Notes under the pieces: model-generated
Database searches by the model: none
What the model saw: the letters and a program-made list of their open reading frames with translations, nothing else
Told to the model about the DNA's origin: nothing
Origin: an uncultured Clostridium sp.
Lineage (GTDB): Bacteria; Bacillota; Clostridia; TANB77; CAG-508
Assembly: GCA_947648495.1 (NCBI GenBank)
Contig: CANSOA010000002.1
Location: forward strand, 166,250 to 230,249
Direction of reading: 5' to 3'
DNA length: 64,000 bases
Position numbers and translations under genes: made by a program
In this document: piece by piece, positions 57,427 through 59,820 of the stretch
Layout: each line of letters begins with the position of its first letter
How positions within the stretch are numbered: the first letter of the stretch is position 1

Positions 57427-58071
57427 TTATTCCACAATCGTATACTCACTCAAATCTGGCAAAGCGACATCTTCATCTGTCACCTCTCCAATTTTAAATT
57501 CGTAGGTTTTTTCTATTTTAGTTTTGTCATCTAATCTAACTCTTTTCACAGAAGAATAAATTGGTAGATATGTACTTGACTCAATTATAACTTCTTCCTT
57601 CCTAGTAACTATTTTGTAACAAAATTTATCATTATATTTTATCGGTATAATATAATTAATTTGACTTAACTTCAGCTTAAGCTTAATATCTTTTAATTCC
57701 ATAAATGCTGGAAGACTATATAAAACATCTCTATTTTGAATTGTTAAGTCATTCATATAAACTTCTTTCTTTTCTGAACAAAAAGAATATTCTTGATTGT
57801 TTTCAAAATTTCTATATTTACATCTTACTTCTGAACCACTTATTCTATTAATATATTTTATTATATCTTCTTTCAACAAAACCTTCTCTTCCAAAACTGC
57901 ATCTCCATCTATCACAGTATTTACAAAATAAGCTCTATTCTCCTCATTCCTAAATTCATCAATTGCATCAAACATATTTTTAACAATCACAAAATGATAC
58001 AGTTTGATTAATACAAACAACAATAAAATTATTCCCATTATTATCAAAACTTTTCTTATCAATTTCTTCAT
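57427..58071 (-). CDS. membrane-anchored hypothetical protein (214 aa)
   Basis: N-terminal TM segment; lies between blaR1-like and cpaB-like genes in the same orientation. Confidence 0.4.
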   Translation of the reverse strand: MKKLIRKVLIIMGIILLLFVLIKLYHFVIVKNMFDAIDEFRNEENRAYFVNTVIDGDAVLEEKVLLKEDIIKYINRISGSEVRCKYRNFENNQEYSFCSEKKEVYMNDLTIQNRDVLYSLPAFMELKDIKLKLKLSQINYIIPIKYNDKFCYKIVTRKEEVIIESSTYLPIYSSVKRVRLDDKTKIEKTYEFKIGEVTDEDVALPDLSEYTIVE

Positions 58072-58081
58072 TCTACCTCAC

Positions 58082-59365
58082 CTATTCAACTACAATCTTA
58101 ATCATATACTCCTTACTTCTATTTATACCATACGCTAATGTAAATTTATAAATATATTCTCCAGTTTGAAAACAACAAATTCCTGTTGATGTTATATCAA
58201 CTGACGCTCTGTACGTTTTCCCATTTGTTAAATCTGTCTTATCATAAACCACAAAATTCTCACAGCGTCCACCATTCGTAAATAACTTGAAGTTCTCCTT
58301 TTCTTTCACGCTTATTGTTGTTTTCACATCGCTTTCATTCTCTTGGATTTTCGTAGCTTCTACAACACTTCCATCTTCTAATTTTATAAATAATCTAGGT
58401 ACATCAAATATTCCATAACAACTTGGATAAAATATTAACCATATTAATAAAATACTGGAAATAGTTGCTATCATAATGGTTTTAGCATTTTTCTCAAATA
58501 CTTCTTTCATCAATAAAATATCAACTCTGTCTTCTATTACATTAATTTCAGTTACTAATCCAAGCACTACCTCCCTTTCATTTCTAAAACTATACATCTG
58601 TGCCACTGTTGCAATTACTTTACAATATTCTAATTTTTCGTCTTCTTCCATATCTTTTGTCGCCATCTCATCTGTTGCTAATTCTATATCCTTTTTCATA
58701 CATCTAAAAGGATATTTTAGAATTGGATTATACCAATGCATACATTTAACAACATTAATGAAAAGATTTAATAAATTATCTTTTCTTTTGTAATGTGATA
58801 ACTCATGCATCATAATCGCTACTATAGAACTATCGTCTAGTTGCAGTATTTCTGCTGGAAGAAAAATCTTAACACGAAAAACACCCATAGTTGATGGCGT
58901 TTTTATAATATGATGTTCAATTAATTTAATATTTTTCTTAATCTTTAGCCTCTTTTTACATCTTTCTAGTATGCCAACTATTCTTTCTTCTTTAATCTCA
59001 CGATTTCCAGTTTTTCTATTCAAAACAATTTGCATGTAAATGACTTTGCTCAAATTTATCATAGTAACTGCAAACCAAATATTTGAAAACACTATCTCCA
59101 AATAATTTTTGTTTATTTTATGATAATTTGCCTCAATTTGTTCTTTTAATTTTGAATCAATTTCACTTTCAACACTTAATATATCGTTTGAAACTTCTCT
59201 TGCACTTGGTTTTACACGCTCCACATGAATGTAGTTATAAACACTAATTTTACTTGGTGTCGGAATCGGACAAATCAAAGCAATTATAAAAACTAGCCAA
59301 ATAATATAATGGCATTTGGGTGAAAGTTTCTTATTGGTTATTTTTCTGAATAATAAAATAACCAA
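58082..59365 (-). CDS. BlaR1/MecR1-family M56 signal-transducing metalloprotease with a non-PBP C-terminal sensor domain
   Basis: HELSHYKRKDN zinc motif. TTG start with a GGAG ribosome-binding site. The C-terminal roughly 130-aa extracellular domain has no transpeptidase motifs. Confidence 0.6.
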   Translation of the reverse strand: MVILLFRKITNKKLSPKCHYIIWLVFIIALICPIPTPSKISVYNYIHVERVKPSAREVSNDILSVESEIDSKLKEQIEANYHKINKNYLEIVFSNIWFAVTMINLSKVIYMQIVLNRKTGNREIKEERIVGILERCKKRLKIKKNIKLIEHHIIKTPSTMGVFRVKIFLPAEILQLDDSSIVAIMMHELSHYKRKDNLLNLFINVVKCMHWYNPILKYPFRCMKKDIELATDEMATKDMEEDEKLEYCKVIATVAQMYSFRNEREVVLGLVTEINVIEDRVDILLMKEVFEKNAKTIMIATISSILLIWLIFYPSCYGIFDVPRLFIKLEDGSVVEATKIQENESDVKTTISVKEKENFKLFTNGGRCENFVVYDKTDLTNGKTYRASVDITSTGICCFQTGEYIYKFTLAYGINRSKEYMIKIVVE

Positions 59366-59436
59366 ACCAACTCCTGTAGCAATAATTGTTATGTAAAATA
59401 TTTGACAAGCGAAAGATATGATTAATTTTTGAAATA

Positions 59437-59820
59437 TTATAAATCCCCCCCTTTGTTTTTCTTCTTACTATTAATTTTGCTAATTAAGCCTTCTAAATCA
59501 TTTTTAGAAATTACATTAGCTTCCACAAAATTTAATATCATATCATCAAAACAACCATTGTAAAATTGTTTTACAAAATTTTTACCTCTTTTTAGTCTAT
59601 ATTCATTTTCTCTAATTAATGGAACATACGTATATGTTTTTCCTTCTTTTTTTGCTATTCCTACCGCTTTTTTTGCAATTAATCGATTAATTAATGTTCT
59701 AATTGTATTATCATTCCAATTACAATACTCTAACTTTTTTATAATTTCTAGAGATGTAACTTCTCTTTCTTCCCATATAATTTTCATAACTTCTAATTCT
59801 GCATCTGAAATTCTAATCAT
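59437..59820 (-). CDS. BlaI/MecI/CopY-family transcriptional repressor
   Basis: 127 aa with a winged-helix N-terminus (MIRISDAELEVMKIIWEE). GGGGGA ribosome-binding site. Confidence 0.7.
   Translation of the reverse strand: MIRISDAELEVMKIIWEEREVTSLEIIKKLEYCNWNDNTIRTLINRLIAKKAVGIAKKEGKTYTYVPLIRENEYRLKRGKNFVKQFYNGCFDDMILNFVEANVISKNDLEGLISKINSKKKNKGGDL

Follow-up and report, generated by a model that had tools for sequence, protein, structure and literature searches.

A non-beta-lactam BlaI/M56 module with a predicted Ig-like sensor beside a Tad-like pilus locus in an uncultured Clostridium

A repressor, a protease and a third gene

We analysed a stretch of 64,000 nucleotides (nt) from an uncultured Clostridium sp. 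(contig CANSOA010000002.1, positions 166,250 to 230,249), hereafter the window, whose minus strand carries three tightly packed genes. These encode, in order, a BlaI-like repressor (blaI), an M56 protease of the BlaR1 type and a protein of 214 amino acids (aa), named orf214 (Table 1). A preliminary description of the same interval had recognised the first two, co-oriented with and directly upstream of a Tad-like type IV filament locus, as we confirm, and had missed the third. The listed M56 start lies 71 nt beyond the end of blaI, and orf214 starts 11 nt past the M56 stop. The promoter of the three genes is kept in all related loci, and orf214 is followed by a hairpin with a U-tract (folding energy -13.0 to -13.4 kcal/mol, z -2.6 to -3.9). 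At the same place, and with different stems, a hairpin and U-tract are found in L008, L002, L006, L012, L009 and L016, i.e., in 7/7 loci of the clade of the window; they are absent from the more distant clade of L004, L014 and L017. An equal position and U-tail combined with differing stem sequences is the signature of a real terminator. Together with the separate and conserved sigma-70-type promoter of the downstream cpaB-like gene, this terminator makes blaI-M56-orf214 a transcription unit of its own in this genome. Rfam at gathering thresholds revealed no riboswitch or other known RNA control element in the 64 kb.

The blaI product is a member of family PF03965 (Penicillinase_R, E=8e-29 over 114/115 model positions) and aligns end to end with the sequences of the MecI (1OKR, 1SD6) and BlaI (1XSD) crystal structures. 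Its recognition helix, NTIRTLINRLIAKK (residues 38-51), is near-identical to that of MecI, KTIRTLITRLYKK (NTIRTLI.RL). It also carries the Asn-Phe site of the protease-regulated subtype: MILN97-F98VE is aligned on LVLN101-F102VE/AK of MecI/BlaI (LVLNFVE/LVLNFAK), so that the scissile bond is predicted at Asn97-Phe98 in LNFVE. Both the helix and the LN-F(V/I) site are retained in 14/14 BlaI orthologues. In Staphylococcus aureus, BlaI and MecI are cleaved at N101-F102 and recognise operators with a TACANNTGTA core (PMC1935004). The NCBIfam models for BlaI of the bla/mec type, MecI and CopY (CopY_TcrY) all score below their cut-offs (94 vs 180, 76 vs 250 and 87 vs 122 bits, respectively), and no CxC...CxC copper motif is present in the BlaI-like protein.

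The M56 product matches PF05569 (Peptidase_M56) with E=6e-45. The HELSHYKRKDN string and the C-terminal string quoted in the preliminary description are both present, the former at residues 187-197, with HELSH (187-191) encoded at 58807..58793. The third zinc ligand, Glu228, lies in IELATD (58687..58670) and the last transmembrane segment (TM) spans residues 296-313. The protein could be aligned to S. aureus BlaR1 (8EXP) only over BlaR1 residues 14-312, where its H187, E188, H191 and E228 correspond to H201, E202, H205 and E242 of BlaR1. The residues H, E, H, E, T and D are invariant among 33 M56 family members.

Beyond M56 residue ~311 no BlaR1 model matches; NCBIfam blaR1_generic, for instance, covers model positions 13-328/585 only. 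After the last TM comes an extracellular domain of ~105 aa (residues 314-427), shorter than the ~130 aa first announced. An AlphaFold2 model of these residues, with 27 relatives in the alignment, shows eight beta-strands in an immunoglobulin (Ig)-like sandwich (predicted local distance difference test, pLDDT, 82; predicted template-modelling score, pTM, 0.71). We found no structural or sequence match of this domain to a penicillin-binding protein (PBP). The domain search and structure prediction that had been recommended thus yielded an Ig-like fold in place of a class D beta-lactamase-like sensor. According to this model, the sensor of M56 is Ig-like, small and lineage-restricted, and is no penicillin-binding domain. 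With no penicillin-binding fold in the C-terminus, a beta-lactam can almost certainly be discarded as the signal, in line with what had been proposed.

About 35 full-length M56 relatives (~35; 30-61% identity, 427-460 aa) have the same C-terminus. When its profile was compared with 1.84 billion representative proteins, 33 matches only were obtained, nearly all of them C-termini of 400-460-aa M56 proteins, with a weak tail of giant surface proteins built of He_PIG, Big_9, PKD and HYR Ig repeats. Queried by themselves, the C-terminal 140 aa gave no matches in a word-index search; the family is seen via the full-length query and the profile search. The domain had been called Cys-rich and devoid of SxxK, SxN and KTG motifs. 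The first term fits the sequence in the window and not the family, whose best Cys column comprises 11/33 sequences. As for the second, Pfam gives no transpeptidase match (PF00905) even at E<=10, and an SxxK string does occur, SDVK at residues 345-348, by chance and without conservation. Mean identity within the family is 28% in the extracellular loop L1 and 39% in the C-terminal domain, against 44-55% in the TM and protease parts. Identity is lower for M56 (36-48%) and orf214 (32-48%) than for BlaI (64-77%) and CpaB (61-86%), the first two thus being the faster-evolving ones.

The module has the two features that define a non-canonical BlaIR system, i.e., an M56 protein without transpeptidase domain and a blaI gene directly upstream (PMC13492132). 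No beta-lactamase or PBP2a gene lies next to it, the neighbours being orf174, an AgrC-like kinase, HtrA, orf214 itself and the cpaB-like gene. We consider it nearly certain that this module is a member of the BlaIR family that does not respond to beta-lactams.

The third gene, orf214, has 19 homologues, all of ~215 aa, with a highly conserved C-terminal motif, YEFKVGEVTDEDVALPDLSEYT, of the form YEFK(V/I)GEVTDEDVALPDLSEYT (short form YEFKVGEVTDEDVALPDL). It matches no known family among the Pfam and NCBIfam models. Its fold may be LolA-like, as suggested by a low-confidence model, and its inferred role is that of a co-sensor or modulator.

The start of the M56 gene deserves attention. The listed one, TTG at 59365, probably truncates TM1. 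The frame is open over the 33 codons upstream, with no ATG, GTG or TTG among them. Homologues begin (MIF.. or MQKL..) ~24-25 codons upstream of this TTG, where the window and the sister locus L008 have ATA ATA TTT, placed 4-7 nt after a strong Shine-Dalgarno sequence, AAAGGGGGGG (region 59365-59464, minus strand). From the sequence, the true start likely lies upstream of the listed TTG, at ATA 59440/59437; initiation at a non-canonical ATA/ATT codon is one possibility, a product lacking TM1 another.

Candidate operators and the phased hexamer array

The preliminary description had advised a search for BlaI-type dyads upstream of 59820 and of the cpaB-like gene, and both regions contain them: TACCATTGTA at blaI, and TACAATTATA and TACATTTGTA before cpaB-like. 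The first is located directly after the -10 of the blaI promoter. At the corresponding position, the pattern ACTA(C/T)nnATGTA is found in seven loci (the window, L008, L002, L006, L009, L012 and L016) and is not kept in the L004 clade. This is the classic autoregulatory position, and BlaI likely regulates its own promoter. The other two dyads are part of an array of four hexamers located upstream of the cpaB-like promoter. Dyads and promoter make up the conserved core of the orf214-cpaB spacer in 8 loci, the array being its best-conserved part; within the promoters of these loci, TTGAWA and ATGTAGTAMAAT are (near-)invariant. By their sequence, these hexamers also resemble PhoP-type TT(A/T/C)ACA repeats. 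Read on the plus strand, 57322-57360 consists of three overlapping exact TGTWAH-N5-TGTWAH sites, for 4 such sites per 64 kb vs 1.3 expected. This pattern is the WalR consensus of Bacillus subtilis (PMC9210968).

We then compared loci in which the pilus genes are linked to blaI with loci in which they are not. An exact TACANNTGTA precedes the cpaB-like gene in 5/6 linked loci scored and in 0/13 non-linked ones. The phased hexamers are four in the 6 linked loci scored (at 0, 11, 22 and 33 nt) and three in the 13 non-linked ones (at 0, 11 and 33 nt); hence, the exact dyad is created by the extra hexamer that is specific to the linked clade. In the L004 clade, which has no terminator, the first dyad abuts the stop codon of orf214. 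The motif by itself is frequent: TTACANNTGTRW with one mismatch gives 35 matches in the window vs 33 expected in this AT-rich DNA, so that the bare motif carries no weight, and only position and cross-species conservation count. At the promoter of the divergent gene orf174, TTRCAATTGCAA palindromes are seen in L002, L009 and L012, and no convincing BlaI dyad in the window or in L008. Among the ~45 open reading frames (ORFs) of the window that were scanned, no response regulator was found that could serve the TGTWAH array or the orphan kinase.

Two further elements were observed. Between the blaI and orf174 promoters lies a direct repeat, TTCGAC-N6-TTCGACAA (59930-59947, minus strand; consensus TCGACA-N5-TGACAA, 11-12-nt phasing), which is kept in all related loci, with four copies in the L004 clade. 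It immediately precedes the -35 of the divergent promoter of orf174 and the kinase, a position like that of an activator site. Far from the module, another exact dyad, TACAAATGTA, is present at 13320-13329, beside a (CA)n microsatellite of ~13 units (about 13362-13436, minus strand). The microsatellite is inside a small ORF (MKRLKIGQNAKNVGAV, then a His-Thr repeat) located upstream of a 412-aa gene, and could be a phase-variable or leader-peptide element.

The pilus locus and the divergent pair

The Tad-like locus encodes a CpaB-like protein, two ParA/TadZ-like proteins, a CpaF-like ATPase (in three frames), a 690-aa polytopic membrane protein, pilin-like proteins and an 817-aa protein; past 42 kb are sporulation and housekeeping genes. 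The cpaB-like gene begins with an ATG at 57218, preceded by a GGGAGG ribosome-binding site (RBS), and its product matches the CpaB model TIGR03177 weakly (E=4e-4, below cut-off). In our scans no family match was obtained for Flp pilin, prepilin peptidase or TadB/C, nor for the 690-aa and the pilin-like proteins. Judged from these sequences, the filament system seems to be of a divergent Tad-like type. The pilin-like proteins (48195-48752 and 49603-50400, minus strand) begin with M..(S)KALIMV(A/G)G(L/V)LL, unlike the Flp or G-F-T-L-x-E prepilin motifs.

The ATPase gene (54637..52524, minus strand) is split over three frames. Dropping one C at TGC-C-GGA (53494, in Walker A) and another at ATC-C-GGA (53292, before GEVATD) restores an ATPase of 703 aa, which matches T2SSE (E=4e-6, above cut-off) and aligns with the CpaF structures 8RKD (E=1.6e-9) and 9E24 without any break across the two sites, including GEQGCGKTT and NIIGEVATD. 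Both sites coincide with a heptamer (T/A)(G/T)C-CGG-A (C-CGG-A, +1), and are identical at the nucleotide level in ten related loci, with flanking codons that vary synonymously. L088, L090 and L092 possess both shift sites and L102 the first only, while in L097, L099 and L101 the gene is in one frame, with GGT TGT GGT AAA. The 0-frame codon at both sites is CGG, the rarest Arg codon of the window (9/581 Arg codons). The split therefore probably reflects programmed +1 frameshifting, as far as sequence comparison can tell; a pseudogene or an assembly error was rejected on account of the conserved sites and the unbroken CpaF alignment. Elsewhere in the pilus locus (48745-49600), we noticed two tandem units of ~420 nt. 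In each unit, the minus strand bears a perfect sigma-70 promoter (TTGACA-17-TATAAT) and a hairpin, and the plus strand an ORF for a hydrophobic peptide of 47-49 aa with a strong RBS. Their layout resembles that of duplicated type I toxin-antitoxin cassettes.

On the other side of the module, a divergent pair encodes the secreted protein orf174 and the orphan AgrC-like kinase, near which no response regulator is encoded. Of the 13 blaI-linked genome loci, every one apart from L008, where the contig ends first, carries the kinase upstream of blaI, and so does L088. orf174 evolves very fast (24-35% identity). A common GEY..F motif had led us to ask whether it shares the sensor domain of M56, an idea abandoned on an hhalign probability of 1.5%. 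The block of kinase, orf174, blaI, M56 and orf214 is syntenic, together with the cpaB-like operon, in L002, L004, L006, L008, L012-L015, L017 and L088. The full order (kinase and secreted protein divergent; blaI, M56, orf214; then cpaB-like, two ParA-like, ATPase and 690-aa protein genes) is found in ~9 metagenome-assembled genomes of uncultured Clostridium/Clostridia, distinct at species level, and in one metagenome contig. In 13 more distant Tad-like loci, no blaI or M56 gene is present in the upstream DNA examined, and in 10/13 a HAD-type hydrolase gene precedes cpaB-like.

Table 1. Features of the module and its surroundings (positions in the window)
Feature	Position	Strand	Basis or remark
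BlaI/MecI-family winged-helix repressor (blaI), 127 aa	59437..59820	-	PF03965, structure-sequence alignment
M56 (BlaR1-type) membrane zinc metalloprotease, 427 aa as listed	58082..59365	-	PF05569
M56 C-terminal extracellular sensor domain (residues 314-427), predicted Ig-like beta-sandwich	58085..58426	-	
orf214, 214 aa, N-terminally membrane-anchored extracytoplasmic protein, third gene of the operon	57427..58071	-	
Promoter of the blaI-M56-orf214 operon, TTGACT-17-TAGAAT	59867..59895	-	consensus scan 10/12
Candidate BlaI auto-operator ACTACCATTGTAATAT, core TAC-N4-GTA, 11 nt 3' of -10	59840..59855	-	
Intrinsic terminator 3' of orf214, 15-pair stem with one bulge, then UUUUUU	57377..57413	-	folding
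Regulatory array upstream of the cpaB-like promoter, two BlaI-type dyads and four TWACA hexamers, 11-nt phasing	57321..57360	-	
Dyad box 1, TACAATTATA (imperfect)	57358..57349	-	centre ~-80 of the cpaB-like promoter
Dyad box 2, TACATTTGTA (exact)	57336..57327	-	centre ~-58 of the cpaB-like promoter
Promoter of the Tad-like operon, TTGATA-17-TACAAT	57280..57308	-	scan 10/12
Tad-like type IV filament locus, putative target	42139..57245	-	
Divergent pair: secreted 174-aa protein (orf174, 60114..60638) and orphan AgrC-like histidine kinase (60850..62154)	60114..62154	+	HATPase_c_5 E=3e-17

Possible control of the pilus operon and relation to known systems

The explanation that we favour, with a confidence slightly better than even, is a non-canonical proteolytic module of the BlaIR type, made of three co-transcribed genes and possibly controlling the pilus. 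The M56 protein would couple a cytoplasmic active site (H187, H191, E228) to the fast-evolving extracellular loop L1 and to the Ig-like domain. A non-beta-lactam extracellular cue, probably a macromolecular or lipidic signal of the envelope or surface, would activate it; M56 would then cut the BlaI-like dimer at Asn97-Phe98, and the cut BlaI would leave its TAC(A)-NN-(T)GTA operators. By the operator just 3' of the -10 of the module promoter, this would result in autoregulation. At the pilus promoter, the two dyads (at ~-58/-80) overlap a phased TGTWAH array that is presumably older and looks like an activator site of the OmpR/PhoB type. Given this overlap upstream of the -35, BlaI would most likely block an activator and not RNA polymerase. 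In its most detailed form, the proposal is that an activator-type array was overlaid with BlaI dyads when a five-gene island (kinase, orf174, blaI, M56 and orf214) arrived beside the Tad-like operon, that BlaI acts as an anti-activator, and that a surface or host cue in this way gates the pili; we advance this form tentatively. Direct control of the pilus operon by the module, taken on its own, seems to us an even bet.

Several observations weigh against such control. Between the module and the pilus operon lie the conserved terminator and the separate promoter. Box 1 is imperfect in the window, and the L004 clade has a degenerate box 2. The location of the dyads upstream of the -35 is unusual for a repressor, and the same DNA is made of three overlapping exact WalR-type sites, whose phased hexamers are also kept by 13 related pilus loci without blaI/M56 in the upstream DNA examined (four of them with the full 5 kb). 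Moreover, L009 and L016 keep the five-gene island and the auto-operator, with unrelated genes downstream and no adjacent pilus locus. Since all BlaI-linked loci belong to one clade, the co-occurrence of dyads and module counts as one evolutionary event. Finally, the M56 gene is here without a canonical start codon for a full-length TM1. The preliminary description had proposed that proteolysis derepresses the filament genes, unless blaI and the protease gene formed an isolated unit closed by a terminator. The conserved arrangement, the dyads and the cleavage site agree with derepression; the terminator, the pilus operon's own promoter, an array older than the link to BlaI and the case of L009 and L016 do not, and the hairpin and U-tract after the orf214 stop bring the module close to such an isolated unit.

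The same observations can be read differently: the module could be a self-contained envelope-signalling unit with a local regulon (itself and possibly the divergent pair), the array an activator site for an OmpR/PhoB-family (WalR- or PhoP-like) regulator, and the adjacency a lineage-specific insertion. Although we regard this as a possibility rather than a probability, it accommodates the three exact TGTWAH-N5-TGTWAH sites, the hexamers at 0, 11 and 33 nt in the 13 loci, a position (-50 to -85) that is typical of activators, spacer bases of the TGTA half-sites that vary more than the hexamers, the terminator, and the module without a neighbouring pilus locus in L009 and L016. The divergent layout is also like that of blaZ/blaR1-blaI, and the strongest CenI target is likewise a small exported protein. 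However, the scanned ORFs of the window include no response regulator, the fourth hexamer and the exact dyad are confined to the BlaI-linked clade, and the divergent promoter of the window has no convincing dyad. Furthermore, a TACA/TGTA specificity is predicted from the recognition helix of BlaI, and near the module no intergenic dyad is exact other than that preceding cpaB-like.

We judge it unlikely that the module is decaying or silent here, M56 having lost its start codon and TM1 and BlaI having become an uncleavable constitutive repressor. The 33 codons without ATG, GTG or TTG, the ATA found in the window and L008 in place of the ATG of the homologues, and the identical sequence in an independent assembly (L001) would fit such a loss. 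Nevertheless, the remaining M56 ORF is intact and has kept every catalytic residue; the upstream codons are open and TM1-like, which suggests an ATA/ATT start behind AAAGGGGGGG; a TM1-less M56 would retain the topology of the other segments; and the sharing of this start feature with a sister species indicates that it is maintained. A canonical beta-lactam-sensing BlaR1/BlaI or copper-sensing CopY system is highly improbable, and we consider it refuted by the sequence and predicted structure. It has for it family names, in the form of partial matches to NCBIfam blaR1_generic, BlaI_of_BCL and CopY_TcrY, yet these are below the curated cut-offs, with BlaR1 models confined to the N-terminal 328/585. 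The all-beta C-terminus, the genes adjacent to the module and a BlaI free of CxC...CxC all speak against such a system.

What would this system mean? It adds to the BlaIR family a well-defined non-beta-lactam subfamily with an Ig-like sensor, a third gene and ~35 members in uncultured gut Clostridia. It is still common to take BlaIR systems for regulators of antibiotic resistance; for annotators, "BlaR1" at such loci should not count as a resistance determinant. If the pilus link is true, it would be the first pilus or adhesion output of the BlaIR family, with a testable competition between a protease-controlled repressor and an activator. If BlaI is an anti-activator, regulated proteolysis would gate the pili of these gut Clostridia, and both this output and the promoter logic would be new to BlaIR. 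Practical value will stay modest as long as neither a cultured representative nor a heterologous reporter exists. In our literature search, no paper linking BlaI-family regulators with Tad pili was found.

The preliminary description had put a sensor other than a PBP in its headline. Such a sensor is in fact the norm in the M56 family: Kurtz et al. (2026) surveyed ~15,000 M56 proteins, of which ~6% have a transpeptidase domain, the commonest architecture being M56 followed by an unannotated C-terminus, with ~96% near a BlaI gene (PMC13492132). CenIR of Clostridioides difficile has been characterised as a non-canonical BlaIR with neighbouring targets (PMC13492132). PvmSR is another non-beta-lactam BlaIR system with neighbouring targets, and an example regulating virulence has been reported in Pseudomonas aeruginosa.

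CenIR shares with our module a BlaI-like gene directly upstream of an M56 gene without transpeptidase domain, a candidate target a short distance downstream and an origin in Clostridia. The C-terminus of CenR is however described as largely unstructured, while an Ig-like domain is here confidently predicted; in addition, a third co-transcribed gene, orf214, is present here, and the candidate target is a 15-kb pilus locus, as opposed to a small exported protein and a cell-wall hydrolase. With BlaR1/BlaI and MecR1/MecI of S. aureus and Bacillus licheniformis, the module has in common the M56 gluzincin site (HExxH and Glu), the TM/protease region, the repressor fold, the recognition helix, the Asn-Phe site and the TACANNTGTA-type dyads. 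It differs from them by the lack of a class D beta-lactamase-like sensor and of a linked beta-lactamase/PBP2a gene, by the gene order (blaI-blaR instead of blaR1-blaI) and by the position of its external dyads, which do not cover the promoter and lie upstream of the -35. CopY/CopR regulators have the same PF03965 fold and TACANNTGTA core operator; on the contrary, our repressor has no C-terminal CxC metal site, the flanks of its dyads misfit the extended cop box RNYKACANNTGTMRNY, and its partner is a protease and not a metal chaperone. The RseB/RseA-DegS pathway offers an analogy only, in that a LolA-like extracytoplasmic protein is encoded with a membrane protease pathway; the protease family and the substrate are different, and the fold of orf214 comes from a low-confidence model. 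As in operators of the WalR/PhoP type (OmpR family), four TGTWAH hexamers with 11-nt phasing lie upstream of the -35, but in this clade the array also bears palindromic TACANNTGTA cores. Compared with all these systems, what sets the present case apart is its Ig-like sensor, its third gene, which is conserved, and its location next to a pilus locus.

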